From contig CAJJCY010000003.1 in assembly GCA_905182865.1 (NCBI GenBank), forward strand, positions 586,054 through 650,053: DNA of 64,000 nt, written 5' to 3'. Shown one piece after another: positions 1 to 16,587 of this stretch. The position numbers and the translations under genes are program-made. Positions within the stretch are counted from its first letter, which is position 1. Every line of letters starts with the position of its first letter. Below the pieces are notes generated by a model that did not search any database, was not told where the DNA came from, and saw only the letters and a list, made by a program, of their open reading frames with translations. The stretch is from an uncultured SAR324 cluster bacterium. Lineage in GTDB: Bacteria > SAR324 > NAC60-12.

Positions 1-665
1 GCATGCGAAACTCCGTATCCAGCCTGCGCGATCAGACTTGATACTTCCTGTATGCCGGTGCCGGACGCACCTATGATTCCAATGGCTCCTTGTGGGATCT
101 GGTTGGCAAAGGCAAGAGGTACACCACCGATGATGGCGGTCCCACAGTCTGGTCCCATGACCAACAACCCAGCCGCAACAGCTTCACGCTTGAGCGAGAC
201 CTCTTCGGAGAGCGAAACGTTATCACTGAACAGCATTACGTTCAGTCCAGCACGAAGGGCCTTGCGCGCCTCGGCTGCAGCAAAGTCCCCCGGAACTGAA
301 ATCAGGGCAAGGTTTGCAGCGGGCAGAATGTCTTGTGCCGAGCGCAATGTTCTGGGACGCAAAGTGGTAGTCCCCGTATGGCCAACCGTAGGCCGTTCCA
401 GCAGGATCTCGGCCTTGGCCAGAGCACTTGCCGCAGCGGTTTCATCCCGTGCCCTGACAGCGAGTATAAGATCTCCCCCAGTGGCTTTGCGGCTAGCTCT
501 TGCCAGAAGTTTGGCGTTATCGAGAAGGTCGAGGTTGGAAGGGGTTCCAATCATGAGGGCGGCATCCTCAACCCCGTCAAGACGAGTGATGGAGCGGGAA
601 ATCTGCATTAGTATCACCGAGTCAAGAAACAGTCCAGCACAGACGCGGTTCACAATTTTACTCAT
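1..665 (-). CDS. fdrA: FdrA/AllF-family protein (succinyl-CoA-ligase-like fold; oxamate carbamoyltransferase subunit family). N-terminal 221 codons only; the 3' end runs off the window.
   Basis: Not in the ORF track because it is truncated by the window edge. My translation of the minus strand from ATG 665-663 gives MSKIVNRVCAGLFLDSVILMQISRSITRLDGVEDAALMIGTPSN...ANLALISVPGDFAAAEARKALRAGLNVMLFSDNVSLSEE...LLVMGPDCGTAIIGGVPLAFAN...GIIGASGTGIQE, open to position 1. These blocks match E. coli FdrA as I remember it (DSVSLM, ANLALISVAGEY, LLVMGPDCGT, GASGTGIQE). ATGA start/stop overlap with the upstream gene. Confidence 0.8.
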   Translation of the reverse strand, partial: MSKIVNRVCAGLFLDSVILMQISRSITRLDGVEDAALMIGTPSNLDLLDNAKLLARASRKATGGDLILAVRARDETAAASALAKAEILLERPTVGHTGTTTLRPRTLRSAQDILPAANLALISVPGDFAAAEARKALRAGLNVMLFSDNVSLSEEVSLKREAVAAGLLVMGPDCGTAIIGGVPLAFANQIPQGAIGIIGASGTGIQEVSSLIAQAGYGVSH

Positions 666-1936
666 CTTACCCCCAGTCGAGTCGCCAGTGCTTTCAGAGC
701 CAGTTCAAAACAAGCCAGAGGTGCTTTTACGACACCTGCTCCGACCTGACCGATTCCCGGTTTGCGGTGAGCAATGCCAGTGTTAATTGTTGGAGTAATA
801 CCCGTTTCCACCACCAGACGTATGTCGATTCCGGTCGGCACCCCCTGATAATCAAGAGCTGGAATTGTCCATTCGGGGTTTTGTGTGAGCGTAATCTCAC
901 CCATGGTGCGGGTAAAATCGGCTGCAATGGACGGTGTTCCCGCACCGACGAAACCAGCAACGGCTGGAGCCGCTGCCATGGCAAACCCTCCAAGCCCGAT
1001 TGTCTCGACAATGGTGGAGTCCCCCATGTCAGGATTGGCATCGTCGGCACTAAATCCAGGAAAATAAAGACCCTCTGGCATTTCCACTGGAGCGGTGAAC
1101 CATTCATCGCCAAGACCACTTACGCGAATACCGAAGTCGGTACCATTACGGGTCATCGCGGTGACAACGCTGGAGCAGTCGATGTCACACACTGGATCCA
1201 TGATCGCCTTACCCAAGGCCATGGCCAAGTTGAGAAAGAACTGGTCATTTGAACCGATGAAGGATAGCATTTCGGCCAATGCGGTGCGATCATCCACGGT
1301 TCGTGCAAGGTCCGGGGCTAACGTCCGTAACAGCAGGCTTGAACAACCAAGGTTACGCTGGTGCATCTCATCACCCATGGTGAGCCCACGGGCGACCAGT
1401 GGTTTGAGCTCGATCCCCTTACCAGCACGAAGGGCGACACCGAGTGCCGGACCCAGTGTATCCCGTAGCCAGCCCAAACGCTTTAGCACAGATGCATCGT
1501 TTCCACCGAAACGCATCACCTTTCCAAGTCCCTCGTTGATGGTGCAGAAAGCATGGTTTCCGCTAGCTCGGTTCTCCACCACCAGCACCGGCTGGCTGAG
1601 TGTGGTCATACCTGTCATAGGGCCAACCGCACCAAAATCATGGTTTGGATTAAGACTAAATGCCCCAGACTCAGCCAATTGTTCTGCCTCGGCAAGGTCT
1701 GTGGCCCAACCCTCAAAGACTGCAATGCCAGTGACAGCTCCACGCATTGGCCCGCACATGTTTCCCCAGTCGATAGGAGGACCGGCATGAAGAATCATGC
1801 CCTCCTGAAGTGCTGGGATCGCCTCGCTTGCCGGGACCACGTCAATCAGTACCGGTTTGGCTTCGAGTATCCGACGGATGGCCTCCGCATTGGCCTTACG
1901 TATGTTCGAACCCACTTTCTCCGATGTAGTCATCAT
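662..1936 (-). CDS. ylbE: DUF1116 (YlbE/AllG-family) protein
   Basis: 424-aa ORF with ILHAGPPIDWGNMCGPMRGAVTGIAVFEGWA and SLNPNHDFGAVGPMTG blocks typical of DUF1116 as I recall the family. It sits directly upstream of fdrA-like with 4-nt ATGA overlaps at both ends, and is linked to carbamate kinase as in E. coli fdrA-ylbE-ylbF-ybcF. Confidence 0.8.
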   Translation of the reverse strand: MMTTSEKVGSNIRKANAEAIRRILEAKPVLIDVVPASEAIPALQEGMILHAGPPIDWGNMCGPMRGAVTGIAVFEGWATDLAEAEQLAESGAFSLNPNHDFGAVGPMTGMTTLSQPVLVVENRASGNHAFCTINEGLGKVMRFGGNDASVLKRLGWLRDTLGPALGVALRAGKGIELKPLVARGLTMGDEMHQRNLGCSSLLLRTLAPDLARTVDDRTALAEMLSFIGSNDQFFLNLAMALGKAIMDPVCDIDCSSVVTAMTRNGTDFGIRVSGLGDEWFTAPVEMPEGLYFPGFSADDANPDMGDSTIVETIGLGGFAMAAAPAVAGFVGAGTPSIAADFTRTMGEITLTQNPEWTIPALDYQGVPTGIDIRLVVETGITPTINTGIAHRKPGIGQVGAGVVKAPLACFELALKALATRLGVR

Positions 1937-2154
1937 TCATTCAGCTTAGAAAGGAGGTTCGCCAGTTCTACATCTCCACGTGCAGGAGGTGACCAGTCCA
2001 CATGCACCACTACTGTTCCCTGTTTCGTAAGTTCATCAGCAAAGGATGCGAGTCCAAGATTTATAACTTGAGGGGGACCATTCAGGAGAGACTGCTGTAC
2101 CGTCTTTTCCTTAATCTGGGCACCACTCTTCTGTTGGTCGGATGCTTTGTTCAT
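1933..2154 (-). CDS. Small protein resembling the C-terminal tail of FdrA-family proteins
   Basis: 73-aa ORF. Both ends overlap neighbouring genes by 4 nt, indicating translational coupling. PQVINLGLASFADELTKQGTVVVHVDWSPPARGDVELANLLSKL resembles the E. coli FdrA C-terminus as I remember it (VAVINIGLRSFALELQSASKPVVHYQWSPVAGGNKKLARLLERL). Confidence 0.5.
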   Translation of the reverse strand: MNKASDQQKSGAQIKEKTVQQSLLNGPPQVINLGLASFADELTKQGTVVVHVDWSPPARGDVELANLLSKLNE

Positions 2155-3386
2155 TGATTGTAGACCTTGTAGGCAGCATCCACCCCGGCACCTGGAGGTG
2201 CGGCGAAACCGTTACGCCGCATCACAATCTCAAGCGCACTGAGACAACGCAGGATGTTGGCCTTGTGACACACATAGCCCATCGTGCCAATTCGCCAGAT
2301 TTTTCCGCGTAAAGGACCGAAAGAAGTCCCGATTTCGAGGCCAAAGTCATCCAGTAACTGTTTCCGTACTTGCTCTCCGTCTCCAAGCGCATTTGGGATA
2401 AAGACTCCAGTCACGTTGTCCATCCGGTAACGTTCGTTTCCAAAGAGTTTTAGATTCATGGCTGTGAGACCTGCGCGAAGGGCTTGACTGGTGATGCGAT
2501 GACGGGCAAAACCCGCTTCTAATCCTTCGCGGAGAACTTCCTGAGCGCATGTATGGGCAGCGTAGAGCATAGAAGTAGCCTCGGTGTGATGATTGAGACG
2601 CTTAGAACTCCAGTAATCCATCAGCATTGCAAGGTCAAAGTAATTCGACTGCACGATCACTCCATCAGCATCGGAGGAATCCTCGGATCGGATACCAGCC
2701 TCGACATGCTTGCGTGCGTTCACGATTTCAGCAACGCGGTCGTTGATCGTGAGTGGTGAGGATCCTGGCGGACCTGAGAGGCATTTCTGTAACCCTGCTG
2801 TGACTGCATCAAGACACCACTTGTCAACCTCGATCGGCATACCTCCTAATGTTGCAGTTGCGTCCACGTAAACGACTGTGCCAGCCTCGCGGCATAAAGG
2901 GCCAATCTCATCTAGCGGCTGTGCCATAGTTGTTGACGTGTCCCCATGGACCAAAGCTACAAAACGCGGCTGGTGTGTGCGGATTGCATCGGCGATCTGC
3001 TCAGGTTCAAACACCGTTCCCCATTCAGTTTCAATGTTGATCACTTCCGCTTGGCAGCGTCTCGCAATTTCTGTCAGGAGGTGGCCAAAACGACCGAAAA
3101 TCGGGACCAACACCCGGTCGCCGGGTGATATCATTGAACTTAGACATGCCTCAATTCCCGCACGGGCTGTGCCATTGACCAGGAATGTCCATTGGTTGCG
3201 AGTTCGGTATACCTGCCGATAGAGCGCCATGACTTCGTCCATATAACCGGTGAACTGGGGGTCGAACTGACCTAGCATCGGCAATGACATGGCTCTCAAT
3301 ACTGCTGGGTATACATTAACCGGTCCAGGGCCCATCAAGAGGCGTTGTTCTGGTTCCAGCGTTTTGAGTTCTAAATGGTTCATCAA
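2151..3386 (-). CDS. Class V aminotransferase (serine/alanine-glyoxylate type). Candidate ureidoglycine-glyoxylate aminotransferase (PucG-like).
   Basis: 411-aa ORF with an AGXT/SPT-like sequence (LLMGPGPVNV..., GDRVLVPIFGRFG, HGDTSTT, VDATATLGG). The operon context is ureide catabolism. Confidence 0.75.
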   Translation of the reverse strand: MMNHLELKTLEPEQRLLMGPGPVNVYPAVLRAMSLPMLGQFDPQFTGYMDEVMALYRQVYRTRNQWTFLVNGTARAGIEACLSSMISPGDRVLVPIFGRFGHLLTEIARRCQAEVINIETEWGTVFEPEQIADAIRTHQPRFVALVHGDTSTTMAQPLDEIGPLCREAGTVVYVDATATLGGMPIEVDKWCLDAVTAGLQKCLSGPPGSSPLTINDRVAEIVNARKHVEAGIRSEDSSDADGVIVQSNYFDLAMLMDYWSSKRLNHHTEATSMLYAAHTCAQEVLREGLEAGFARHRITSQALRAGLTAMNLKLFGNERYRMDNVTGVFIPNALGDGEQVRKQLLDDFGLEIGTSFGPLRGKIWRIGTMGYVCHKANILRCLSALEIVMRRNGFAAPPGAGVDAAYKVYNQ

Positions 3387-3436
3387 CTTGTTCTAATACT
3401 AAGAGATTGGAAATTCAATGTGGCTGTTTTTAGCTT

Positions 3437-4402
3437 CTACTGATCTGGAAAGATATGGGTGCCTGCTTTGCCAAGTAGTGCAGGCATTGCTTCATCAAGA
3501 TGCGCTATGGTCGCACGTTTTCCTCCACCTTCGATAAAACGAATTGCCGCTTCAATTTTAGGTCCCATACTACCCGCAGGGAACTGTCCTTCTTCAAAAT
3601 ATTTTTTTGCTTCTGAAACGGTGATTTGACCCAGTTCCTGTTGTTCCGGTTTTCCGAAGTTTATCGCAACTTGAGAAACAGCTGTCAGGATCATGATATC
3701 CTTGAATCCAAGCACATTTGCCATGTGGGCTGTAGTCAGGTCTTTGTCGATAACTGCTTCAACTCCACTTCGCAAGCCTTGACTGTTGCGGACAACCGGA
3801 ACACCGCCACCTCCGCCTGCAATAACTATAGTACCATTACTTGATAAGGATTCAACAAGAGAAATATCACAAATATGTTTGGGTTTTGGAGAGGCAACTA
3901 CCATGCGCCAACCACGTCCTGAATCTTCTTTCATCGTCCATCCCATTTTTTCTGAAAGATCTTTGGCTTCTTTCTCGTTGTAAAAATAACCCACGGGCTT
4001 GGTTGGATTCTTAAATCCAGGATCATTTGCGTCAACTTCAACCTGTGTCACCAGACCAACGACATGACGCTGGTTTCCGACTTTCCTCAAGGCATTTTCG
4101 AAAGCCTGCACCAGAAGATAAGCCGTCACACCCTGCGTGTTGGCTACGCAAATATCCAAAGACATTGGTGCAACCTGTTTATGGGCTAGGGCTTGACGCA
4201 TCAGGACCTTGCCAACCCCGGGGCCATTACCATGGGTAATTATCAACTCGTTTTCAAGTTCTAACAGCGGTAACAAAACATCTGCCGTTTCTTCAGCAAT
4301 GGCAACCTGTTCTTCAGATGTACCTTTTATTCCGGCCGGGTGAATCGCATTGCCGCCAAGAGCAACAATAATTCGTTTGGGAAATTCTTTGTTTGAATTC
4401 AT
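3437..4402 (-). CDS. arcC: Carbamate kinase
   Basis: 321-aa ORF with IIVALGGNAI, ITHGNGPGVG, IAGGGGGVPV and AVIDKDL, which are canonical carbamate kinase motifs. Confidence 0.9.
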   Translation of the reverse strand: MNSNKEFPKRIIVALGGNAIHPAGIKGTSEEQVAIAEETADVLLPLLELENELIITHGNGPGVGKVLMRQALAHKQVAPMSLDICVANTQGVTAYLLVQAFENALRKVGNQRHVVGLVTQVEVDANDPGFKNPTKPVGYFYNEKEAKDLSEKMGWTMKEDSGRGWRMVVASPKPKHICDISLVESLSSNGTIVIAGGGGGVPVVRNSQGLRSGVEAVIDKDLTTAHMANVLGFKDIMILTAVSQVAINFGKPEQQELGQITVSEAKKYFEEGQFPAGSMGPKIEAAIRFIEGGGKRATIAHLDEAMPALLGKAGTHIFPDQ

Positions 4403-4428
4403 GTAATAACGCCTAAATGGTATTGATT

Positions 4429-5430
4429 TTATTGAATAACAAAAACATTGAACAATTCGGATATTTCCAGTGCATCAAGGTTTGCATCCAGAGCCAAAGA
4501 CAAAAGCAATGCTGATTTTTGCGGATTAAGCAAACCTGACGGAAAAACTTTTTTACTTTTGACAGGAGTCATGGTTTCCGCTAGAACTGTAACCTTTGAC
4601 ACCCGAGAAGAAACGACGACAGTGCATCCAGAATTTGCCGTTTCAGCGACTATTCTATTCAGGTTGTCAGGCATTGTACCACCTCCAAATCCTGCCACCA
4701 CCAATCCTTTACAAGCATTTCCCTCAAAATCGGCAAGTGGCTGATCTCCGCAACCAGCACGAAGTAAAACAATATCTACAAACGGCAACTCGTCATCATT
4801 CCGCAAATGGTTGTGGAATCGTCCCACTAGCGGAGAAAGATTTGGTGATCCGAAAAGCAAAAGGCTTTCACCGACAATCTTTCCTATCGGCCCACCGGGA
4901 TAAGCATGAAAAGAATCTAGTGCCACAGAATCAGTTTTGATGATTTGCCATCCGGGAATCACCAAACCGTTCATTACTACAAGCAATCCATGACTTTGAA
5001 GTTGCGGAGAAGTGGCTGCAAGAACCGCTTGAAATATATTCGCAGGGCCGTCTGCACTAAGTGCGGTGCTGGGACGCATGGCTGCAGTTAAAACTACCGG
5101 TTTTTTTGGTTTGCACACCAAATCAAGAAAAAAAGCTGCTTCTTCAAGTGTGTCGGTTCCGTGGGTAACAACAACGCCGTCAACTTCTGAGTCTGCTGTT
5201 AACTCCTCAATTCTTCGGGCCAGTATTCGCCATTGGTACGGTCCAAGATTTTCAGAACCCGTGGCAAACATGGTTTCTGAATTAACATCAGCCAATCTTT
5301 CCAAACCATCAATTGCTCCGACAAGTTCGGAAGCATCTACGCGCCCGGACTCATAAGCCGCATCTGTTGCCGTAGAACCAGTTCCGGAAATCGTTCCACC
5401 GGTGCCTATAACATGAATTTTCGGTTTGAT
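4429..5430 (-). CDS. L-asparaginase-family amidohydrolase (type I-like), probably with a non-canonical ATC start
   Basis: The track ORF starts at TTG 5304 and contains HGTDTLEE. The same frame stays open upstream to TGA 5448-5446 and encodes (I)KPKIHVIGTGGTISGTGSTATDAAYESG, which carries the catalytic TGGTI motif. There is no ATG/GTG/TTG upstream of that motif. An AGAGG (complement of 5436-5440) lies 5 nt before ATC 5430-5428. Confidence 0.7.
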   Translation of the reverse strand: MKPKIHVIGTGGTISGTGSTATDAAYESGRVDASELVGAIDGLERLADVNSETMFATGSENLGPYQWRILARRIEELTADSEVDGVVVTHGTDTLEEAAFFLDLVCKPKKPVVLTAAMRPSTALSADGPANIFQAVLAATSPQLQSHGLLVVMNGLVIPGWQIIKTDSVALDSFHAYPGGPIGKIVGESLLLFGSPNLSPLVGRFHNHLRNDDELPFVDIVLLRAGCGDQPLADFEGNACKGLVVAGFGGGTMPDNLNRIVAETANSGCTVVVSSRVSKVTVLAETMTPVKSKKVFPSGLLNPQKSALLLSLALDANLDALEISELFNVFVIQ

Positions 5431-5463
5431 AGTAACCTCTTTTCAACTGTCGTTTACCGTGCT

Positions 5464-6483
5464 TCAAACACCGCAGATATTTGCCAATAAGGACATCCGG
5501 AGAGGCACAGAAAATCCTATCTGCTTGAAATAAAGTTCGTGTTCACTGGCATCAATCGCAAAATCAAACTCACCTTCGTTTCGAGGGAGGGAGTGCATCA
5601 GGCCAACAGTCTTGCCGCTTTTTTGTTTTATTTTCTGAAGTCCTTCAAGAGTGAAGTAGAATTCAGCCATTTTTTTCAAGAAATCATCTCGTCCGGGATC
5701 CCCCTTTTTCACAGAACAACCGGGAAGATACAGGAGATCAACTCCTTCATCGGCAAGCATTTCTTCGTGCTGCCCAATAGTCAAATCGTTAACTTCGGTG
5801 AAATTGGCGTTCATTGCTTTCAACTTTTCGCGGATGACTGTAGGTACTCCCAGACCTGTAGTCCCTGAATAAATAAGTTTGGCTCCCATACGTGCCAGTC
5901 CAAGCCCGAAAGACTGGCCGGATCGCGCTCTTGACAAATCAGGTGTAGCGATCATGACGGTCATTTCTTTGAAATCGCCTCCAAGGGCACGATATGCCGT
6001 GTACATGTCCAGTAGCCCCTGAGTCGGGTGGGTTACGTTACCGTAACCTCCACTGATGATTGGCGAAGCATCGCTTCCCAATTGCTCTATGGTGTCAATA
6101 ACGCCTTCATCAGGATGGCGCAAGACGATGACATCTGCGTACTGAGAGGTCACTCTAAGAGAATCATAAAGGGATTCCCCCTTTGCGGCAGCAGAACTGA
6201 CCAAAGGATTGGATTCTGTAATGACATTACCACCCAGCCGAAACATTGCCGTTTCGTGACTGAAACGTGTACGGGTACTTGGTTGAAAAAACTGTGTGCA
6301 GAGTATCTTCCCTTCAAGCAACGGGATACGGTTACGCCAAAATGGTTCAAGCATTTCTGCTGTCTTGAAGATGTTTTCGAGTTCTGTAGACGAATAATCG
6401 TCAATGAAAATTAAATGCTGCCCTTTGATACCGGTTTTCTCAATTTGCTTAAAAGTATCATCCTTAATAAATGTAAGTGTCAT
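5464..6483 (-). CDS. Aspartate/ornithine carbamoyltransferase-superfamily enzyme of unknown second-substrate specificity
   Basis: 339-aa ORF. It has the carbamoyl-phosphate motifs QPSTRTRFSHE and THPTQGLLD, and a C-terminal HSLPR (ATCase has HPLPR). The ATCase aspartate-binding block after D(I/V)LYMTRVQKER reads DLLYLPGCSVKKGD here. Confidence 0.8.
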   Translation of the reverse strand: MTLTFIKDDTFKQIEKTGIKGQHLIFIDDYSSTELENIFKTAEMLEPFWRNRIPLLEGKILCTQFFQPSTRTRFSHETAMFRLGGNVITESNPLVSSAAAKGESLYDSLRVTSQYADVIVLRHPDEGVIDTIEQLGSDASPIISGGYGNVTHPTQGLLDMYTAYRALGGDFKEMTVMIATPDLSRARSGQSFGLGLARMGAKLIYSGTTGLGVPTVIREKLKAMNANFTEVNDLTIGQHEEMLADEGVDLLYLPGCSVKKGDPGRDDFLKKMAEFYFTLEGLQKIKQKSGKTVGLMHSLPRNEGEFDFAIDASEHELYFKQIGFSVPLRMSLLANICGV

Positions 6484-6522
6484 AGTTTTCTATCTTAAAA
6501 AAATTAGAAATAAAGTTATTGG

Positions 6523-7293
6523 TTAGATATCCGCATCACGGTTCATATCTTTGCTGTAGATGTACCATAGCGGTTCACGCCCGGTGGTATAGGCAGCTTG
6601 CTGGGTGAACGGTCCAAACCAGATAAAATCTTCCTTCTGCACCGACAACCATTCATCACCAAGCAAGTAAAGACCTTGTCCGCCAAGCAGATAGGCACCA
6701 TGTTCCTGAACATGAGTTTCCACGAAAGGATGACAGCCGTCAGGCATAAATTTGAGCGTATGCATATTCATGTCGAACTCCAGATCATTGGGCAATAAAT
6801 CACGCAGAAATACATTGTCCATTTCATCATAAATGTTCTCTTCAATCTTGTTGATGTCTCCAAAAACGATCCATGGTTTCAGGTCACCCAAAGGGACATA
6901 ACGTTGTTTGTACAGTAGAACACGAACTGACTCAGAAGACGAGTTTTCAAATTCAATGCCTGTATCCGGTGGTGCAAACGCATAACCTCCGGCCTTTAAT
7001 TTTTCGGTTATGTCTCCGACACGAACCTTAAGTTCACCGTCCCCATCCATTACAAACAGGAAGGTCTCAACTCCTGGAGCCTCAACGAATGGAACTAATG
7101 TTTTTCCTCCTGCTTCAACGCTTCCGACATACTGTACAAAGCTTGCGCCGTGTTTTGGTGAGGCGATAATCGTAAGTTTGCATCCCTCAAAACCGGGGAT
7201 GGAATTAATAACCCTCCCTTCTGGAGGAATGATAGTAAAGATTCCGGGTTTTATAACGGCTCGACTTTCAAGAAATCCTTTTGGGTACGGCAT
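6523..7293 (-). CDS. allE: (S)-ureidoglycine aminohydrolase (bicupin, YlbA/AllE family)
   Basis: The 256-aa ORF has the length and two-cupin layout of AllE/UGlyAH (…FVETHVQEHGAYLLGGQGLYLLGDEW…), in a ureide-operon context. Confidence 0.8.
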   Translation of the reverse strand: MPYPKGFLESRAVIKPGIFTIIPPEGRVINSIPGFEGCKLTIIASPKHGASFVQYVGSVEAGGKTLVPFVEAPGVETFLFVMDGDGELKVRVGDITEKLKAGGYAFAPPDTGIEFENSSSESVRVLLYKQRYVPLGDLKPWIVFGDINKIEENIYDEMDNVFLRDLLPNDLEFDMNMHTLKFMPDGCHPFVETHVQEHGAYLLGGQGLYLLGDEWLSVQKEDFIWFGPFTQQAAYTTGREPLWYIYSKDMNRDADI

Positions 7294-7471
7294 ATTATTT
7301 TATCCTTATATTTGGTTTATGTCCCTCAACAGAAAAAAATATTTAAAGGACTGTGGTTTACTTTATATTAATGATTTGCGCAATTATCATGGTCTAAAAA
7401 GGTAGACTTCACATTCCGAATAATAGGTTCTATTAGCGTGATAACTTGAAATTCAGGTATCAAAAAATCCA

Positions 7472-8110
7472 TTAATTTGGAATAGCATCAAGGAATTCCT
7501 GGTAGTAAGGTCGTCTAAATTCCTTGAGAAGGTGTTCAAGTTCAGAAAGCGGATCTTTGTTGTCATCCACTCTGAGATGGCAAAATGGAAAGGGTTGATT
7601 TTTAATCGTCAATAGTGCAGCCGATTGCCTGCCACGAACATCTCCTCCGACAGCTTCTCCTGCTTTAAGTGCTCGCAACAACCTCTCCTCAATTGGTTCG
7701 TCCTTCTTAGATTTTATTACTTCAAAGCATGCTTCTAGTACTTGTTCCCCCACGAGCATATTTCCCGCCAAGCTGAAATTTTTTCCACATTTATGTCCTG
7801 ACCATTCTACAGTATCTTTGCCTGTCCAGGCCCAAGCATTCCCTGACACGTCTACACCATGCAACTGTCTTGAATCTTTGGCGGGATCTTCTTTTAAAGC
7901 TGCCAAAAGCGAATCCTTCAGGGAATAACCGCTAGCCATTTTTTCCAATCCTTTTAACCCCAGATATGGATTGGTTGCCGCTTGCGTCGCTATTGCCCCT
8001 ATACCTGACTTTAAGTGTGGGACAAGTGCTCCTACAGCAAAATGACATGTAGCCACAGCAACTCCTAGTGTTTTCGACTTTGGATCACACATTACGATAG
8101 AGAAAGTCAT
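7472..8110 (-). CDS. DUF1028-family protein (Ntn-hydrolase-like fold)
   Basis: The 212-aa ORF begins MTFSIVMCDPKSKTLGVAVATCHFAVGALVPH..., the characteristic DUF1028 N-terminus (M-T-F-S-I) as I recall the family. It is the first gene of the minus-strand ureide operon. Confidence 0.7.
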   Translation of the reverse strand: MTFSIVMCDPKSKTLGVAVATCHFAVGALVPHLKSGIGAIATQAATNPYLGLKGLEKMASGYSLKDSLLAALKEDPAKDSRQLHGVDVSGNAWAWTGKDTVEWSGHKCGKNFSLAGNMLVGEQVLEACFEVIKSKKDEPIEERLLRALKAGEAVGGDVRGRQSAALLTIKNQPFPFCHLRVDDNKDPLSELEHLLKEFRRPYYQEFLDAIPN

Positions 8111-8605
8111 TTTTTTTCTAATTGGAATTTAGATATATTATTACCAGTGTCCCAAGGAAAAATTAATTATTCTCAGTAACTATTTGAAAACACAAATTTG
8201 TATGCAGTTTATGTTTAGTCCTTGAGGCTATAGTCAAAAAACGGCTAGAAATAGAGACTTCACCATACAATATTCTCAAGTTATTGAGTCTTCTCAGTAT
8301 TTGAAAAAACATTAATTCAGTTGCTTGATAAATAAATAATAACTTAAGGCAATAACTTAGGGACATTAGAGAGAATTTCAACTTTTTTAAGATGATTCTA
8401 AGCTTTTACAAAATTTTAAGAATCATCATATCATCTATTAATACAAAAATATTTTAAATTAAAAACTTGTAAGGCAATTTAATTTTTATGATAATATGCC
8501 TAAATTTTATTATAACCTTATTACTGGAGCTAAAAGGTAAAATTATATATATTTAATTCAAAATATAGGAATCTCTATTTTTTAACTTTTTTCAGGAGGA
8601 TTAAG

Positions 8606-10152
8606 ATGAAGATAATTAACTTTAAATCAACGCTTATCATGCTATATTATTTGCATGTTTTTGTCATCTTTTGCTCAAGCAAAAGATATTATTTGGGCTC
8701 GTTATGGTGATATTGATACACTTGACCCACATAGAGCCACGAGCACTTTGTCTTTACAGGTGTGGGGCCTTATTTATGATACCTTGCTGGCGACTGACAA
8801 GGATGGGAATGCCGTACCACACTTGGCTAAGTCTTGGGAAGTCTAATTCAGATGGGACTGAATATACTTTTGTCGCTGAATAAAGGGTCTAAGTGTCATG
8901 ACGGGACCGCAATGGATGCAAATGATGTTAAATATACTGTAGAAAAAGCTTTCAGTAAATCTAGTCCAAGTTTGACAAAAGGCAGTTGGGGGCCAATTAC
9001 TAAGGTTGAAGTTCTCAATCCACTAACTGTAAGCTTCCATCTTAAGACACCATTTGTTGCACTTATTTCATTTCTTGCTGACAGTTTTTCGTCAATTATT
9101 TGCGACTCTAATAAAGGTAAATCAGGTTTTGGTACAAGCGCAGCGATTGGATCTGGGCCATGGAAATTTGTCTCATGGACCAAAGGCGACAGGATAGTTT
9201 TAAAGAAAAATCCTAATTTTAAGAATTTTGGTAAATTGCCAAAAAATCCAGGGGCCCCTTATATGGATGGTCTTGTAATAGCGGTAGTTCCTGAACCACA
9301 AGCACGTCTGGCGGCACTCAAAACCGGTGAAGTACATATAGCTGAACCACCATTTGATGATGTCCAGGCCCTTAAGGATTCTGGAGCGCTTAAAATTATG
9401 GTTGCAGAAAATACTGGACAAAATGTTTTTTGGGAATTTGCTGCACACAGGCCACCTTTCAACGATAAACGTGCTCGATTAGCAGTAGGCCATGCCACAG
9501 ATCCAGAAACAGCTATTAATTTGATTTATGGTGATCTTTCTATGACGGAGGCGTGCCCAGTTTCTAGGGGCGTTTTTGGTAATGACCAAGAGTTTTGCTT
9601 AAAGTATAGGCCAAATTACAATCCTGAAAAAGCCAGGGCATTGCTAGCAGAAATTGGATATGGTCCAAGCAATCCACTTGAAACAACAATGATTGTATGG
9701 ACCGGTGGTAATCGCCCAAAACTTGCTGAAGTTTTTCAATCACAACTTGCTGAAGTGAATATAAAAGCAAATATTGAACCATTATTGGTTCTATAATGTA
9801 ATTTTGAAAAATGAAAATAAAACAAGTAAAAATGTTGAGCATGGATATGATGACATGGTCATGGTACGATCCTGATATCCTTTATGCTTTGTGGCATTCT
9901 CCGGGCGCTTATCGGGGATATACTACACCAGGACTTGATGCGATGTTAGAAAAAACTAGAGTCTTAAGCAATAAAGATGAACGAAAAGCGCTTGTTCAAG
10001 ATGTATTCAAGCATCTTCTCGAAAATGGTGTTCACATTCCTCTTTATACTCCTGGGTGGGAATGGGTTTTTGCAGTCCGACCGGAGGTAAAGGGATTCAT
10101 TGTTGCCCCTTTTGTCTATCCAACGTTCAATGATGTTAGGATAGAGAATTAG
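8606..10152 (+). pseudogene. Family-5 (Dpp/Opp/Nik-type) periplasmic substrate-binding protein, disrupted by at least 5 frame changes
   Basis: GGAGGA at 8595-8600 precedes ATG 8606 (MKIINFKSTLIMLYYL...). The coding signal then hops frames: near 8650 (…FLSSFAQAKDIIWARYGDIDTLDPH), near 8844 (…AKSWEV|NSDGTEYTFV), near 8872 (|LNKGSKCHDGT…), near 9785 (…NIKANIEP|…NVEHGYD) and near 9845 (|MDMMTWSWYDPD…). Each hop is +1. Confidence 0.75.
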
Positions 10153-10168
10153 TTTATAAATTATACTT

Positions 10169-10204
10169 GAACGGGGTCTGGAAAACAGCCCCCGTTCATT
10201 TTTC
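10169..10204 (+). terminator. Rho-independent terminator candidate after the binding-protein gene
   Basis: GAACGGGG (10169-10176) pairs with CCCCGTTC (10190-10197), with a 13-nt loop, followed by ATTTTT. Confidence 0.6.
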
Positions 10205-10331
10205 ATCTTCTAAACCCACCTTTACATTTCAATTACAAAGGTTGAATAAATAGCCCTTTTTACCTAATAATTGATGATTAAACATTAATCCTGCATTAAT
10301 TTTATAAAAAATATTTTCAAGACTTGAAATA

Positions 10332-11243
10332 ATGATTCGTTTCCTCTTAGGAAAAATTGTAATGGCTTTTCTCACTGTTTTCATTACAACCATGATTGAA
10401 ACTTCATATCATGGTAATCCAAACCTAAAACCAGTAGGATATCAACACGATTTTACTCCTGAACAAATTGAAGAGGTACGTCGTAATCTTGGACTCGATA
10501 AACCAATTTATGTTCAATATTTCATGTATATTGAAAAGCTATTTCAAGGAGATTTAGGTTATACCATTCGAGGTGGACAACCGGTTATTCAAGTCATTTT
10601 TCAAAGGTTACCAAACACAATTATGCTCGCATGTGCAGCAATGATTATTGCTATTGGTATTGGCTTACCGATTGGTTTTTTTGCCGCATACAAGAAAGGC
10701 ACAATTTGGGATACATTTGTAATGATTATTGCTATTGCAGGTATTTCCATGCCTCATTTCTGGTTAGGATTAATACTTCTTTTCTTCTTTGCAGTGGAGC
10801 TTGGGTGGCTTCCAGTAAGTGGTAGTGGATATATGAATCTTATCCTACCTGCCTTGACTTTGGGCCTATCAAATGCAGCTATTATTGCACGTTTAACTAG
10901 GTCATCCATGATTGATGTAATGCAGCAAGATTTTGTACAGACTGCTTTGGCTAAAGGACTTCCTAAAGGGCTTGTTTTAAGGCGTCATGTTTTAAGAGCT
11001 GGACTAGTACCACTAATCACAATGATGGGTTTGCAATTTGCCTTTATGATGGGAGGTGCAATAGTAGTTGAAAACATTTTTTCGTGGAATGGGGTTGGAA
11101 GAATGGCTGTAGAGGCAATTTTTCAAAGAGATTACCCAATCATACAAGGTTTTATCCTAACTTTCGCAGTGGTTGTAGTAATTGTATCAATATTTTTGGA
11201 TACTATTTATGCTTTTATTGATCCTCGAATTCGAAGGAGCTAA
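10332..11243 (+). CDS. ABC transporter permease (DppB/OppB-like)
   Basis: 303-aa ORF. It is polytopic, with a LGLDKPIYVQY block and the binding-protein-dependent permease layout. Confidence 0.85.
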   Translation: MIRFLLGKIVMAFLTVFITTMIETSYHGNPNLKPVGYQHDFTPEQIEEVRRNLGLDKPIYVQYFMYIEKLFQGDLGYTIRGGQPVIQVIFQRLPNTIMLACAAMIIAIGIGLPIGFFAAYKKGTIWDTFVMIIAIAGISMPHFWLGLILLFFFAVELGWLPVSGSGYMNLILPALTLGLSNAAIIARLTRSSMIDVMQQDFVQTALAKGLPKGLVLRRHVLRAGLVPLITMMGLQFAFMMGGAIVVENIFSWNGVGRMAVEAIFQRDYPIIQGFILTFAVVVVIVSIFLDTIYAFIDPRIRRS

Positions 11244-11257
11244 AGGGAATATCCAAT

Positions 11258-12130
11258 ATGTCTGAAAAATTGAAGAGCGAAGAGTTAAAGACTAAAAACC
11301 AATCATTTTTCATAAGGCTATTGTCTACACCTAATGGTTTCATAGGCTTAACGATTGTCATCATACTTATACTATCTGCAGGATTTGCCGATTTTTTGGC
11401 TCCTTTTTCTCCAACAAAAATGATGGTTGGGAACCGATTCCTTCCTCCGAATTTAGAATTTATTTTGGGTACAGATGAGTTTGGAAGGGATATGGTCTCT
11501 CGTATTTTATTTGGTAGTCGATTGACCTTGATGATTGGCGCCATAGCAGTTGGGATTTCTATGACAACCGGAATAATGATCGGCCTTTTTGCCGCTTATA
11601 AGGGTGGTTGGCTAGAAATTTTACTGATGCGAAGCACAGATATTCTTTTTTCGTTTACAGAAACGCTTATTGCTCTTTCTTGTGTTGCTGTTTTAGGGCC
11701 AAGTTTAACCAATGCTGTTATAGCCGTTGGTATTGCGGGGATCCCATTTTATGCTCGGACCTGCTATTCTGCTGCTTTAGTTGAGAAATCCAAACCTTAT
11801 TTTGAAGCAAGTATCGCATGCGGAGCAAGTCATTCTAGACTTGTTTTCATGCATCTGTTACCAAATGTTTTACCTACAATGATTGTTATTTCAACTTTAG
11901 GTGTATCTACTGCAATTTTGGCAGCAGCAGGCTTAAGTTTTCTTGGACTTGGCGCTCAACCTCCACTTCCTGAATGGGGGTATATGCTTGCAGGTTCAAG
12001 AGATTATATTAACCGTGCACCATGGTTAATGACTATACCAGGTGTTGCAATTGCCTTAACAGTTCTTGGTTTTAATCTTTTAGGTGACGGATTTAGAACA
12101 GTTCTCGACCCTGTAGAAAGGCAGAGATGA
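11258..12130 (+). CDS. ABC transporter permease (DppC/OppC-like)
   Basis: 290-aa ORF with ILGTDEFGRDMVSRILFGSR, typical of DppC/OppC. It overlaps the ATPase start by 4 nt. Confidence 0.85.
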   Translation: MSEKLKSEELKTKNQSFFIRLLSTPNGFIGLTIVIILILSAGFADFLAPFSPTKMMVGNRFLPPNLEFILGTDEFGRDMVSRILFGSRLTLMIGAIAVGISMTTGIMIGLFAAYKGGWLEILLMRSTDILFSFTETLIALSCVAVLGPSLTNAVIAVGIAGIPFYARTCYSAALVEKSKPYFEASIACGASHSRLVFMHLLPNVLPTMIVISTLGVSTAILAAAGLSFLGLGAQPPLPEWGYMLAGSRDYINRAPWLMTIPGVAIALTVLGFNLLGDGFRTVLDPVERQR

Positions 12131-13804
12131 ATGAGTCTATAATTCTTTCAGTTAATAACTTGAATGTTAGCATTAAATCTAAAGGAATCGTATCTCAAAT
12201 TGTACATGATTTGTCGTTTGATGTTAACAGAGGTGAAATTTTATCCATAGTTGGTGAATCTGGTTCAGGAAAAAGTATGACGGCTAAAGCTATTTTGGGA
12301 TTATTACCTGAAAATAGTTCTGTTAGTGGCAAAGTTATGTTTCAGGGTCGCAATCTACGCGACTTGAACGACGAACAAGATGCGCAAGATGTCCGGGGTG
12401 CAAAGATTGGTATGATTTTTCAAGAACCTATGACTTCTTTAAATCCAGTATTTACATGCGGAGATCAAGTAATGGAAGCAATTGTTCTTCATCAAAAATT
12501 AAATACTAAAGATGCTAAATTATGTTGGCATCCGTGAGCCTGAAACTCGGCTTGGGGCCTATCCGCATCAGCTTTCAGGTGGTCAGCGGCAACGCATTAT
12601 GATTGCCATGGCCCTTGCCAACCGCCCGGATGTCTTGATTGCCGATGAGCCGACAACGGCTCTGGATGTGACTATTCAGGCGCAGATTTTAGAATTATTG
12701 GCTGAGTTGAAAGTCTCAGAGGGGATGGGTCTTTTGTTCATCACCCATGATCTGGCGATTGTGCGCCGGATTGCCGATCGGGTCTGTGTGATGAAAGACG
12801 GTGAGATCGTCGAGACTGGCAGCACGGCAGCGATTTTTGCAAATCCGCAACCCTATACAAAATCTTTACTGGCAGCTGTACCGCGTTTAGATGTTAAAAC
12901 ATTTAAAAATGAATCTTTTACGAAAACTTCAACAATTCCATTAGTAACAATAAATCGTGTATCTAAAACGTTTACAAATAATAAATATTTATTCTTTGAT
13001 GGTTGGAAAACTAATGCTCTAAATGAAGTAAGTCTTGAAATTAATTATGGAGAAACAGTTGCTTTAGTTGGGGAAAGTGGCTCTGGGAAATCAACACTTG
13101 GGAGAGCAATAGTTAAACTAGTAAATATAGATTCTGGAAATATTGTAATTGATAGTTCAAATATTAATTCACCAAATTCTAATGATTTACGTAAGCTCCG
13201 ATCAAATGTTCAGATAATTTTTCAAGATCCCTATTCATCGCTTGATCCCAGATTTTCAGTCGGTAGAAGTATTGCAGAACCAATTCTAATTCAAAAAAAA
13301 TGTAGTCGATCAGAAGTAAAAGATAGGGTGTCAATTCTTTTAAAGAGTGTTGGTTTAAATAATGAAATGGCAAGCCGTTATCCACATGAATTTTCTGGAG
13401 GTCAACGTCAACGTGTAGCTATAGCAAGGGCTCTTGCATCTGAACCGAAATTTATCGTAGCTGATGAGCCGACATCGGCTCTAGATGTAACCATACAAGC
13501 ACAAATACTTGAACTATTGATTAACCTTAAAAAAGAGCTTCATAAGACAATTGTTTTTATTACTCATGACCTTGATGAGGCAATCCGGATCGGACACAGG
13601 ATAGCAATAATGAAAGACGGTATAATTGAACAACTAGATACTGTTTTAGGAAATCCTCATAACGCTTATACAAAATCTTTACTTGACGCGGCGCCTTATC
13701 CCGATCCGGAGAAAAGGAAAAAATTAAAAAGAAAAAGTGATTTAAAATCATTTAATACGGGGCCACTAATTGAAATATCACACAATCATTGGGCAGCATC
13801 ATAA
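12127..13804 (+). pseudogene. Fused double-ATPase (DppD+DppF-like) ABC component, split by a +1 frameshift near 12500-12515
   Basis: ORF 12127-12537 carries Walker A (GESGSGKS) and ends …HQKLNTKDAKLCWHP*. ORF 12512-13804 continues in the next frame with (I)LKMLNYVGIREPETRLGAYPHQLSGGQRQR…, then a second full ABC domain (GESGSGKST … FSGGQRQR … ADEPTSALD). Confidence 0.75.
12526..12888. other. GC-rich patch inside an AT-rich ATPase gene (compositionally foreign segment)
   Basis: Hand counts: 12601-12660 = 37/60 GC, against 23/60 at 12241-12300 and 14/60 at 12901-12960. The peptide ALDVTIQAQILELL is encoded twice in the gene with different codon usage: gatgtgactattcaggcgcagatt in the patch, and gatgtaaccatacaagcacaaata in domain 2. 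Confidence 0.7.
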
Positions 13805-13922
13805 AATAGTGATTGATTCCTAATTCTGTCCTTGTTTTAAGAATTATCAAATTTTTTAAAATTGTACAGCAAAAAACAATGTTAAACAGGATCATCCAAG
13901 TATTTATTACTTTCTCCGATAA

Positions 13923-13949
13923 GCCGATGGAGTTTTCAACTCCTTCGGC
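13923..13949. terminator. Hairpin between convergent genes (possible bidirectional terminator)
   Basis: GCCGATGGAGTT-TTC-AACTCCTTCGGC forms a 12-bp stem with one mismatch. There is no clear U-tract on either strand. Confidence 0.35.
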
Positions 13950-13986: not shown

Positions 13987-14895
13987 TTAATTTGTTGAGT
14001 GGTGTTTGTGCCAGTGTCGGGCTATGTCGATGCGGCGGCACAGCCAGACATCAGCATGGCTGCTTACATAATCAATAAATTTTTCCAAAGAGGCGGTGCG
14101 TCCGGGCCGACCGGTCAGTCGGCAGTGCAATCCGATACTTAACATTTTTGGGGAGGCTTCACCCTCGGCATATAGCACATCAAACGCATCCCGAAGATAT
14201 GCAAAAAACTGCTCTCCTGAATTAAAACCCTGTGGGCTGGCAAAGCGCATATCGTTGGTGTCCAGAGTGTAGGGAACCACCAAATGAGGATCTCCTGCAG
14301 GGGTTTCTACCCAGTAAGGCAAATCGTCCGCATAAGAATCGGCATCGTATAAAAACCCTCCGACTTCCTGTACCAAACGCTGAGTGTTGGAACTAGTGCG
14401 CCCGGTGTACCAACCCAAAGGTCTGCTCCCCGTAACACGGGTATGGATATCAATGGCTTTTGCCATATGTTCACGCTCGATGTCTTCGGGTATATTTTTG
14501 TAATCAATCCAGCGATAGCCGTGAGACGCAATTTCCCAATCGGCTTGCAGCATGGCCTCAACAGCTGCCGGATTACGTTCCAGAGCCATAGCGACACCGA
14601 AAATTGTCACTGGAATATTCCGGCTTGTGAAAAGACGATGGAGTCGCCAAAATCCGGCCCTGCTTCCATATTCGTAGATTGATTCCATGCTCATGTGTCG
14701 TGCACCTGTGAAGGGTGGCGCGCCGATGATTTCGGAAAGGAATGTTTCGGATGCAGGGTCTCCGTGGAGGATACAGTTTTCTCCTCCTTCCTCATAATTG
14801 ATGACAAATTGGAGGGCAATCCTGGACTTCTCGGGCCACTCAGGATGTGGAGGTTTTTGGCCGTAGCCAAGCATGTTGCGGGGATAATGTTCCAT
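13987..14895 (-). CDS. puuE: Allantoinase, PuuE type (polysaccharide-deacetylase fold)
   Basis: 302-aa ORF with RNMLGYGQKPPHPEWP…IALQFVINYEEGGE…ASHGYRWIDY…LSIGLHCRLTGRPGR, matching PuuE as I recall it. Confidence 0.85.
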   Translation of the reverse strand: MEHYPRNMLGYGQKPPHPEWPEKSRIALQFVINYEEGGENCILHGDPASETFLSEIIGAPPFTGARHMSMESIYEYGSRAGFWRLHRLFTSRNIPVTIFGVAMALERNPAAVEAMLQADWEIASHGYRWIDYKNIPEDIEREHMAKAIDIHTRVTGSRPLGWYTGRTSSNTQRLVQEVGGFLYDADSYADDLPYWVETPAGDPHLVVPYTLDTNDMRFASPQGFNSGEQFFAYLRDAFDVLYAEGEASPKMLSIGLHCRLTGRPGRTASLEKFIDYVSSHADVWLCRRIDIARHWHKHHSTN

Positions 14896-16242: not shown

Positions 16243-16587
16243 ATGAGTCCTATCACTACCCATGTACTTGATACCTCTCAAGGCTGTCCGGGAGCAAATA
16301 TACGGATACGCTTAGAACAACAACAATCTGACAAAACCTGGCAGGAAATAGCGTCTGGATCGACAAATTCTGACGGGCGGATTGCGAATTTGATTCAGGA
16401 AGATGAGATGATTAATTCGGGAGTTTATCGGATGCTTTTTGAGACAGGTCCCTATTTTGAGCAGCAGGGAACAGCTTATTTTTATCCAGAAATTGAAGTT
16501 CGTTTTTTACTCAATCATACGGAGCAGCATTATCACATTCCGTTGCTGTTGAGTCCGTTTGGTTACAGCACATATCGGGGAAGTTAA
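16243..16587 (+). CDS. uraH: 5-hydroxyisourate hydrolase (transthyretin-like)
   Basis: 114-aa ORF with ITTHVLDTSQGCPG and HYHIPLLLSPFGYSTYRGS. The C-terminal YRGS is the HIUase signature. Confidence 0.9.
   Translation: MSPITTHVLDTSQGCPGANIRIRLEQQQSDKTWQEIASGSTNSDGRIANLIQEDEMINSGVYRMLFETGPYFEQQGTAYFYPEIEVRFLLNHTEQHYHIPLLLSPFGYSTYRGS

Follow-up and report, generated by a model that had tools for sequence, protein, structure and literature searches.

How could an operon that carries several enzymes of allantoin breakdown, and no recognizable allantoate amidohydrolase (AllC), take allantoate apart? The question is raised by a 64,000-nucleotide stretch of DNA from an uncultured SAR324 cluster bacterium (GCA_905182865.1, contig CAJJCY010000003.1, positions 586,054 to 650,053; hereafter the window), at one end of which nine minus-strand genes are packed together. 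A first-pass annotation had read them as an ATP-yielding ureide operon that included several enzyme families of unassigned role. The assignment of a ureidoglycine carbamoyltransferase (UGTCase), a HpxJ/PucG-type aminotransferase, AllG/AllF and carbamate kinase supports the ATP-yielding operon. The "mystery" genes mostly fall in described families, and the asparaginase-like enzyme, here called AsnL, is less easily placed. Taken as a whole, the window is best explained, with a probability of about 0.7, as a complete urate-to-oxamate/glyoxylate catabolic island of a marine bacterium. The nine genes, and the spacer after the first of them, are:

7472..8110, minus strand: DUF1028 protein, 212 aa (Pfam PF06267, 226 bits)
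7294..7471, minus strand: AT-rich spacer between DUF1028 and allE, 178 nt, a possible promoter or regulatory region of the allE operon
6523..7293, minus strand: AllE, (S)-ureidoglycine aminohydrolase, a bicupin (NCBIfam TIGR03214)
5464..6483, minus strand: UGTCase, resembling aspartate carbamoyltransferase (ATCase) (match to Rxyl_2847/Q1AS69)
4429..5430, minus strand: AsnL, type-II-asparaginase-like amidohydrolase, cytoplasmic, 333 aa (Pfam Asparaginase and Asparaginase_C)
3437..4402, minus strand: carbamate kinase, catabolic (NCBIfam NF009007)
2151..3386, minus strand: ureidoglycine-glyoxylate aminotransferase, class V, HpxJ/PucG orthologue (phmmer; Pfam Aminotran_5)
1933..2154, minus strand: 73-aa protein, detached AllF/FdrA C-terminal tail (NCBIfam FdrA profile 500-555)
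662..1936, minus strand: AllG (DUF1116), subunit of oxamate carbamoyltransferase (OXTCase) (Pfam PF06545, 288.9 bits)
1..665, minus strand: AllF/FdrA, first 221 codons, running off the window (NCBIfam NF004760)

Open reading frame (ORF) listing and translation bore out this layout as first described. The gaps are 178, 39, 33, 26 and 50 nt, the last three junctions being 4-nt ATGA overlaps (aminotransferase/tail, tail/AllG and AllG/AllF), and the family assignments of all nine genes were checked by Pfam and NCBIfam. The closest related loci (numbered with the prefix L below) carry the labels SAR324 or uncultured delta-/proteobacterium. In comparisons with related loci, the ratio of non-synonymous to synonymous substitution rates (dN/dS) lay at 0.02-0.25, a sign of purifying selection, in every case except one; it was 0.145 for DUF1028, 0.17-0.25 for AsnL and 0.21 for the 73-aa ORF against L001. 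The exception was the short 73-aa ORF comparison against L030 (0.62, with a dS of 0.07). The genes compared are therefore real and maintained. Scans for regulatory signals added little: promoter-like sites in positions 1-9000 numbered 18 against 12.6 +/- 3.7 expected and terminators were fewer than expected, which is uninformative, and an Rfam search at E <= 0.1 found no riboswitch or leader RNA in positions 1-20000.

The answer to the opening question probably lies in the ATCase-like gene. In Rubrobacter xylanophilus, whose genome has no AllC, the "pseudo-ATCase" Rxyl_2847 has genes for a carbamate kinase and an asparaginase as neighbours; it was shown experimentally to phosphorolyse allantoate, giving ureidoglycine and carbamoyl phosphate, and also to arsenolyse it (Barba et al., 2013; PMC4016543). 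Compared with Rxyl_2847 (Q1AS69, taken from the supplementary alignment of that paper), the window protein is 45% identical over its full length (252 bits, E 4e-87), and by bit score the best solved ATCase stands well behind it (162 bits). It matches Pfam OTCace_N/OTCace and stays under every NCBIfam cut-off for ATCase or ornithine carbamoyltransferase (OTCase), and it ranks nearer to the characterized UGTCase than to the ATCases, the OTCases or YgeW. The carbamoyl-phosphate-binding motifs STRT (QPSTRTR) and HPTQ (THPTQ) are present. The family is recognized by H[ST]LP in place of ATCase HP[LG]P, and by G-x-[SC] in place of the aspartate-binding R-x-Q (Table 1, PMC4016543). Rxyl_2847 has HTLP and LPGCS; in the window protein MHSLPR aligns with ATCase MHPLPR, and LPGCS with VTRIQ of the M. 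jannaschii ATCase. In a pairwise alignment, four of the five residues proposed to bind ureidoglycine (PMC4581275) are kept (R189, S258, K261 and L299), the fifth, T298, being Ser within HSLP. The gene lies among carbamate kinase and allantoin/allantoate genes, with no AllC in the window. By sequence it belongs to the characterized UGTCase family, for which the homologue predicts allantoate phosphorolysis. AllC would then be unneeded, because UGTCase would phosphorolyse allantoate and gain a first ATP-yielding step.

A scan of 185,579 species genomes, in which neighbours were identified by tblastn with a custom query set, returned 32 loci; in 31 of these there was a UGTCase relative of at least 45% identity. 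They come from SAR324, Desulfobulbales, Gamma- and Alphaproteobacteria, a cyanobacterium and Firmicutes. Carbamate kinase adjoins UGTCase in 28 of the 31, AllE occurs in 20 (several of the other contigs begin at UGTCase) and at least 14 have an allantoinase, either PuuE or DHO-type. AllE-UGTCase-carbamate kinase is the combination that these 31 loci keep most often. This distribution bears on another possibility, namely that the ATCase-like enzyme is a classical oxamate (oxalurate) or other ureido-acid transcarbamylase, allantoate being cut by an unlinked AllC. Its specificity has been demonstrated for one family member alone, 45% identical to the window protein, and the genome beyond the 64-kb window could hold AllC. 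However, the gene is kept with AllE and carbamate kinase in many clusters lacking an oxalurate route (AllA-type, L003-L015), an AllC-like M20 protein adjoins UGTCase in none of the 31 loci, and a dedicated OXTCase (AllFGH) is already encoded in the same operon. We regard this possibility as very improbable.

The second ATP-yielding branch of the operon would start at the aminotransferase. The first-pass annotation had named it PucG-type, and its phmmer scores (519.6 bits to Klebsiella HpxJ, 3NNK; 448.7 to B. subtilis PucG, 3ISL; 280 to AGXT, next in rank) mark it as a true ureidoglycine-glyoxylate aminotransferase orthologue. The fdrA-ylbE-type oxamate carbamoyltransferase proposed for the same operon was likewise confirmed at the level of family: over 416 residues AllG shares 55.5% identity with E. 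coli YlbE, and the AllF fragment shares 49% with residues 9-222 of E. coli FdrA (NF004760, 236 bits over profile positions 8-222). DUF1116 has been known as AllG since 2024, and the activity of E. coli AllFGH was demonstrated to be that of an oxamic transcarbamylase (PMC11326118). Three of the supposedly unassigned families are thus accounted for, the ATCase-like gene as UGTCase, DUF1116 as AllG and the 73-aa ORF as the AllF tail. The window holds a complete AllG and the N-terminal part of AllF, the position of AllH falling outside. AllH (DUF2877) follows AllF in L017 (Pfam AllH), L018, L025, L052 and L054, and the L052 operon, whose genes are 94-96% identical to those of the window, continues with AllF and then AllH. 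An ylbF/DUF2877 gene had been expected just outside the window, and from these near-identical and related loci the rest of allF and allH very probably lie beyond position 1.

A single AllF chain of about 555 aa with its C-terminal tail was not found, the tail being a separate gene upstream of allG. The 73-aa ORF has no Pfam match and covers positions 500-555 of the 555-position FdrA profile (NCBIfam, E 7e-12). Its core, VINLGLASFADELTKQGTVVVHVDWSPPARGDVELANLLSKL, is 55% identical to residues 513-554 of E. coli FdrA, and it aligns with residues 430-473 of the FdrA crystal construct 3DMY. Where a free tail ORF is present, AllF ends at profile position 491 of 555 (AllF of L017 covers 6-491). The 73-aa ORF is, on this sequence evidence, the detached C-terminal tail of AllF/FdrA, and the gene order appears to have been permuted from allF-allG to tail-allG-allF. 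The free tail is kept in 10 loci. An exhaustive search of 1.8 billion representatives gave 569 tail clusters, and composition was counted among the best 150: 114 were free-standing proteins of at most 110 aa (105 of these begin with Met), and in 9 the motif was the C-terminus of a full-length FdrA. Several clusters (P0371, P0394, P0440 and also P0399) have the tail fused to the N-terminus of AllG, and in Clostridia AllF::AllG is a single 1009-aa fusion protein (L021:5258-8287). Counting that fusion, the coding sequence of the tail lies directly ahead of AllG in every case, fused to it or not. Because such Rosetta-stone fusions point to contact between tail and AllG in OXTCase, the tail may be the AllG-docking element of this structurally unsolved complex. 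The split-tail architecture is common and, as far as could be found, has no description in the literature searched. It is a variant of OXTCase and not a ground for excluding the operon from this group.

Four arrangements of the cluster were seen across genomes: a Desulfobulbales type (transporter, allantoin racemase, AllE, UGTCase, carbamate kinase, AllA, PuuE); a clostridial type (allantoinase, AllE, AllD, AllF::AllG fusion, permease, UGTCase, carbamate kinase); the type of SAR324 and marine Gammaproteobacteria (UGTCase, AsnL, carbamate kinase, HpxJ, tail, AllG, AllF, AllH); and a Rhodospirillales type (AllA, AllE, UGTCase, AsnL, carbamate kinase, TRAP transporter). A sister SAR324 lineage (L033/L034) has the same DUF1028-AllE-UGTCase-AsnL-carbamate kinase genes as the window. 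At its carbamate kinase junction (L033:14944-17765) a malate-synthase/HpcH-like DUF6986 protein and a xanthine permease replace the oxalurate module. In the window, GC content at third codon positions (GC3) steps at the carbamate kinase/aminotransferase junction from 0.34-0.44 (DUF1028 to carbamate kinase, 3437-8110) to 0.52-0.54 (aminotransferase, AllG and AllF, 1-3386). Since the GC3 step and the DUF6986/permease replacement fall at the same junction, the operon is probably a conserved AllE-UGTCase-(AsnL)-carbamate kinase core joined to an exchangeable, GC-rich downstream module that was acquired horizontally. As a separate observation, a Red Sea SAR324 metagenome-assembled genome has no carbamate kinase between AsnL and the aminotransferase, only 260 nt (L002:12054-12314). 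UGTCase and AllG/AllF are nonetheless present there, so that either its kinase gene lies elsewhere or that organism runs the pathway without ATP coupling.

The asparaginase-like gene is harder to place. AsnL scores 195 bits against E. coli AnsB, and all AnsB catalytic residues (T12/Y25/S58/T89/D90/K162) are kept in it and in 15 subfamily members. It falls short of the type II asparaginase cut-offs (TIGR00520, 273.6 vs 314.3 bits; NF008304, 246 vs 506). AnsB is typically periplasmic, whereas AsnL has just 7 residues ahead of TGGT and hence no signal peptide. Subfamily members share 59E and 248T, usually along with 283M. This Q59E/N248T/E283M signature was considered as proof of a new substrate and then downgraded, because Erwinia asparaginase has E63 and S254 at the positions of 59E and 248T.

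Its genomic position is strict. Members of the subfamily (at least 42% identity) lie directly after UGTCase in 19 of 19 loci, one of the genes being a truncated remnant. A metagenome scan with the AsnL alignment gave mostly ordinary asparaginases (33-39% identity), which served as a negative control: UGTCase, carbamate kinase or AllE was near none of their 77 loci. The company kept beyond UGTCase varies: the HpxJ-tail-AllG-AllF(-AllH) module accompanies AsnL in 10 loci and is missing from at least 5, AllE accompanies it in 8 and is missing from 8 whose upstream sequence extends for 5 kb or more, and AllA accompanies it in 4. It is also found in clusters that lack both AllE and AllA and need either glyoxylate or a way to remove ureidoglycine (L002, L016-18, L025, L054 and Rubrobacter). 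A role as non-orthologous substitute for AllA was considered when the genome scan had AllA in 14 loci, AsnL in 10 and both only in L009; it was dropped when AllA-AllE-UGTCase-AsnL-carbamate kinase operons were found in two further lineages. AsnL is thus not a simple replacement of AllE or AllA, and its link appears to be with UGTCase and not with oxamate. The asparaginase beside UGTCase in Rubrobacter was already noted in 2013, and the same study (PMC4016543) describes a second pseudo-ATCase group, a marine one, that again has an asparaginase as neighbour, which hints at a general transcarbamylase-to-asparaginase module.

It had been proposed that the hydrolases of the operon fill the oxamate-amidase slot. 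AsnL would then be the missing oxamate amidohydrolase, an analogue of Klebsiella HpxW that converts oxamate to oxalate and NH3. Oxamate is indeed a small primary amide, the oxalurate module shares the operon at 10 of the 19 AsnL loci and no GGT-type HpxW was found in the window. Yet AsnL is fixed at UGTCase where no oxalurate or OXTCase genes lie within 8-10 kb (L033/L034, L009, L049/L050 and Rubrobacter), and clostridial loci with AllD and AllF::AllG carry no AsnL. It also keeps D90 and E59, which hold an alpha-amino group that oxamate does not have. Since neither the oxamate branch nor AllE nor AllA is a constant companion of AsnL, a role as oxamate amidase is unlikely, and we give this idea little weight.

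Ureidoglycine is an aza-analogue of asparagine, with a side chain of NH-CO-NH2 in place of CH2-CO-NH2. By this analogy, our tentative proposal, which we hold at somewhat less than even odds, is that AsnL acts on ureidoglycine, and perhaps on ureidoglycolate too, by hydrolysis of the terminal carbamoyl amide. The resulting compound would break down into glyoxylate, CO2 and NH3 with no release of urea. Such a reaction would pull the thermodynamically uphill phosphorolysis by UGTCase forward, and would supply glyoxylate to the aminotransferase in the window, to DUF6986 in L033 and to glyoxylate assimilation in Rubrobacter.

AsnL might instead be an ordinary L-asparaginase/glutaminase, or a hydrolytic allantoate/ureidoglycolate amidohydrolase (a phosphate-independent bypass), co-located for nitrogen scavenging. 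The full catalytic set, the score against AnsB and substrate-binding residues that resemble those of Erwinia-type asparaginase all fit this alternative, and the presence of AsnL beside AllA and AllE in some operons implies redundancy. On the other hand, its position at UGTCase holds in all 19 loci across several bacterial classes, ureide neighbours are absent from all 77 control loci, the TIGR00520 cut-off is missed, and the asparaginase paired with the second pseudo-ATCase group suggests a reaction module. This alternative is unlikely, although it deserves more weight than the oxamate amidohydrolase. Ureidoglycine remains our preferred, tentative substrate for AsnL.

The start of the AsnL gene is unusual. 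No in-frame ATG, GTG or TTG occurs before codon 43, and the conserved N-terminus with the catalytic TGGT starts at ATC. The region (5418-5445, minus strand) reads, after an in-frame TGA, AAA GAG GTY ACT ATC AAA CCR AAA ATT CAT, with GAGG 5 nt before the ATC. Four independent assemblies (the window, L030, L033 and L034) share this start, with synonymous changes downstream of it, and other lineages have ATG there. Thus AsnL probably has a conserved AUC initiation codon. Many homologues in databases are mis-called at 280-291 aa and lose the catalytic Thr.

Genes for the upper part of the pathway lie further along the window:

13987..14895, minus strand: PuuE allantoinase (NCBIfam TIGR03212, 542.8 bits vs cut-off 424.6)
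14993..16198, plus strand: PuuD-type membrane urate oxidase (Pfam Urate_ox_N, 391.9 bits)
16243..16587, plus strand: 5-hydroxyisourate (HIU) hydrolase, transthyretin-like, ending in YRGS (ORF and translation)
16624..17130, minus strand: OHCU decarboxylase (Pfam OHCU_decarbox, 143.2 bits)

The HIU hydrolase is 69% identical to an L033 gene product bearing the Pfam Transthyretin domain, and PuuE is GC-rich (GC3 0.49). In the operon, AllE passes the TIGR03214 equivalog (325.8 bits vs cut-off 200) and is 45% identical to E. coli AllE. The carbamate kinase passes NF009007 (336.8 bits vs cut-off 266), is just short of TIGR00746 (356.2 vs 358.25) and is 39% identical to E. coli AllK/YbcF. The absence of AllC, allantoicase, AllA, AllD and a GGT-type oxamate amidase had been claimed from the outset, and it holds for nearly all window ORFs of at least 150 aa: none matched among 40 ORFs scanned in the remaining ~47 kb, and tblastn of E. 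coli AllC, E. coli AllD and a carbamoylase-family M20 protein against the window gave no match.

A pathway can be proposed in which the family memberships of the enzymes come from sequence and the chemistry is carried over from characterized homologues. PuuD, HIU hydrolase, OHCU decarboxylase and PuuE would take urate to allantoate, and UGTCase, in place of AllC, would turn allantoate and Pi into (S)-ureidoglycine along with carbamoyl phosphate. Ureidoglycine would be the branch point, passing through AllE to ureidoglycolate or through the HpxJ/PucG-type aminotransferase to oxalurate. OXTCase, composed of the free 73-aa tail, AllG, the tail-less AllF and an AllH beyond the window, would then split oxalurate into oxamate and a second carbamoyl phosphate. 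A single carbamate kinase would use both carbamoyl phosphates, with ADP, to form ATP, NH3 and CO2.

Several points weigh against this reading. Co-transcription of the nine genes is deduced solely from their spacing, and at 45% identity UGTCase might have a specificity unlike that of its Rubrobacter counterpart. AllE makes ureidoglycolate, yet the 64-kb window has neither AllA nor AllD; either ureidoglycolate is a further substrate of AsnL or an unlinked gene exists elsewhere. The fate of oxamate has no assigned gene in the window (E. coli excretes oxamate). With regard to AsnL, 59E and 248T fit asparaginase too and are no proof of a non-asparagine substrate, and the gene co-occurs with AllE and AllA in Rhodospirillales-type operons (L009, L048-L050). 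AsnL also evolves 2-4 times faster than its neighbours: its identity to the L001/L002 proteins is 63-70%, against 84-91% for UGTCase, aminotransferase and AllG, and to gammaproteobacterial loci it is 47%, against 74-81% for the neighbours there.

The first gene of the row, DUF1028, had also been counted as a ureide gene. It diverges from the following feature:

8619..13804, plus strand: peptide/opine-type ABC importer with SBP_bac_5, two permeases and a fused double ATPase (Pfam; at least 3 frame breaks)

Against the intact L033 orthologues (tblastn), the solute-binding protein of the importer lies in 3 frames and the fused ATPase in 2, with stops at 9778-9820. The importer looks pseudogenized while the flanking ureide genes are intact, sequencing error being the alternative cause. 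DUF1028 itself matches PDB 2IMH (E 1.6e-20). Its AlphaFold2 model (pLDDT 90.9) retrieved with Foldseek 2IMH (TM 0.90) and then Anbu, HslV and 20S beta subunits (TM 0.38-0.55), and Thr2 is invariant in 30 homologous sequences. DUF1028 is thus a hydrolase of the proteasome fold in the N-terminal nucleophile (Ntn) group, with Thr2 as the likely nucleophile. An HpxW-like (GGT-type) amidase was considered and rejected, since Foldseek groups DUF1028 with proteasome-beta/HslV.

The neighbourhood comparison gave a split outcome. AsnL and UGTCase co-occur with ureide genes, whereas DUF1028 is absent from all 32 genome-scan loci and keeps the company of ureide genes only in a SAR324 sub-clade. Its homologues at 56-61% identity are divergent to SBP_bac_5 ABC operons, and AllE, UGTCase and carbamate kinase are not found there. 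In L038 and L041-L045 the module consists of GntR, a carbamoylase-family M20 amidase, an NAGGN-type M42 peptidase (TIGR03106) and the SBP_bac_5 importer, divergent to DUF1028; a pyrimidine nucleoside hydrolase lies alongside in L041-L044. The M20 amidase, of the hydantoinase/carbamoylase family, sits at the threshold of the "allantoate amidohydrolase" subfamily. This module may serve uptake and hydrolysis of an N-acyl or N-carbamoyl dipeptide-like compound. In a cyanobacterium, the DUF1028 homologue has an Asn-synthase-like gene and a transporter of the same type as neighbours. The DUF1028-allE spacer is 178 nt in the window and 393 nt in L033, has no Rfam match and retains only the ribosome-binding site in alignment; DUF1028 may form its own transcription unit. 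Because its homologues travel with ABC operons that lack ureide genes, DUF1028 is most likely an Ntn peptidase or amidase of the neighbouring decayed importer module, and probably not a ureide enzyme.

It could still be argued that DUF1028 is a ureide hydrolase here (e.g., a ureidoglycolate or oxamate amidohydrolase) and the first gene of a true nine-gene operon. DUF1028 and allE are adjacent in two SAR324 sub-lineages with differing downstream modules (the window vs L033-L037), and DUF1028 has stayed intact under constraint although the adjacent transporter decayed in the window. It would be an Ntn amidohydrolase, as is HpxW, and elsewhere its operon partner is the carbamoylase-family M20 amidase. 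Nevertheless, it is missing not only from the genome scan but also from the AsnL look-up loci and three metagenome loci of the AsnL subfamily. The ABC operons beside its homologues carry M42 and M20 peptidases and no ureide genes, the 178-393 nt spacer is not conserved, and its fold is closest to proteasome-beta/HslV and not to GGT. A ureide role for DUF1028 is therefore improbable, and its assignment to the importer module is preferred.

Other genes of the window deserve brief mention. Just upstream of the OHCU decarboxylase, a 324-aa ORF (17189-18163, minus strand) without Pfam or NCBIfam match overlaps the maf stop by 4 nt; L033 also has a 324-aa gene next to its OHCU decarboxylase, and the ORF may be an uncharacterized member of the urate cluster. 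A 471-aa protein (23491-24906, minus strand) fuses an Old-Yellow-Enzyme-type flavin oxidoreductase to a RidA/L-PSP domain. Tandem Na_H_antiport_3 paralogues of 531 and 547 aa (27891-31388, plus strand) lie downstream of a sigma-54-dependent response regulator.

A broader and more speculative proposal, to which we give about one chance in three, is that the AsnL subfamily has a new enzyme activity, that of (S)-ureidoglycine and/or ureidoglycolate carbamoyl-amide hydrolases which set free glyoxylate, CO2 and, as ammonia, whatever nitrogen is left, and which define, with UGTCase and the split OXTCase, an AllC-free and urea-free route yielding up to 2 ATP per allantoate. This route would be widespread in abundant marine lineages (SAR324 and uncultured Gamma- and Alphaproteobacteria). 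If so, dissolved purine-derived ureides would be a source of energy and nitrogen in the ocean interior. Two phosphorolytic decarbamoylases that feed one kinase would make allantoate a fermentable-like substrate for widespread marine bacteria, with substrate-level phosphorylation giving as many as two ATP. UGTCase would cease to be a peculiarity of Rubrobacter, since no other gene is as well conserved in the ureide clusters of at least five bacterial classes. Current annotation labels are affected as well: aspartate carbamoyltransferase (for UGTCase) and acyl-CoA synthetase FdrA (for AllF) are wrong, and asparaginase (for AsnL) is doubtful. In the literature searched, nothing beyond Barba et al. 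(2013) linked asparaginase to ureidoglycine, DUF1028 to allantoin or SAR324 to ureides, and the combination of UGTCase, AllFGH and one carbamate kinase was not found.

Each core step of the proposed pathway has a characterized precedent. Among the closest is the R. xylanophilus cluster Rxyl_2840-2850 (PMC4016543), which resembles the window in having UGTCase (Rxyl_2847), carbamate kinase (Rxyl_2848) and asparaginase (Rxyl_2849), with urate-to-allantoate genes alongside and no AllC. The order differs, UGTCase-AsnL-carbamate kinase in the window and UGTCase-carbamate kinase-AsnL in Rubrobacter. The window adds AllE, for which Barba et al. found no gene in Rubrobacter (PMC4016543), a PuuD/PuuE-type upper pathway and a second ATP-yielding branch (HpxJ and AllFGH).

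The allECD/allFGHK genes of E. coli, which serve its anaerobic allantoin pathway (Kim and Kim, 2022/2024; PMC9843812; PMC11326118), include orthologues of AllE, AllG, AllF and carbamate kinase, and AllFGH/AllK convert oxalurate and Pi to oxamate and carbamoyl phosphate and then ATP, as their counterparts in the window would. However, E. coli reaches oxalurate by the hydrolytic AllC and the dehydrogenase AllD, whereas the window would do so by the phosphorolytic UGTCase, with an extra ATP, and the aminotransferase. The E. coli order is allF-allG-allH, against tail-allG-allF-allH with a separate 73-aa tail gene in the window. An aminotransferase from ureidoglycine to oxalurate is shared with K. 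pneumoniae hpx (HpxJ, 3NNK) and B. subtilis PucG (3ISL). The Klebsiella hpx pathway differs in its HpxK/AllC-type amidohydrolase and its GGT-type HpxW, the oxamate amidohydrolase, neither of which was found in the window.

Finally, the arginine and agmatine deiminase pathways (catabolic OTCase or putrescine carbamoyltransferase with carbamate kinase; PMC4581275) likewise obtain substrate-level ATP from ureido phosphorolysis by a transcarbamylase of the ATCase/OTCase fold. In the window the substrate would be allantoate, and an unrelated second transcarbamylase, AllFGH, would feed the same kinase, so that each substrate molecule would give two carbamoyl phosphates. What appears new is thus the convergence of two mechanistically unrelated phosphorolytic decarbamoylases, UGTCase and AllFGH, on one carbamate kinase, joined by an aminotransferase and not by a dehydrogenase, together with the wide spread of the UGTCase core among phyla, the strictly UGTCase-linked asparaginase subfamily and the split, permuted OXTCase.

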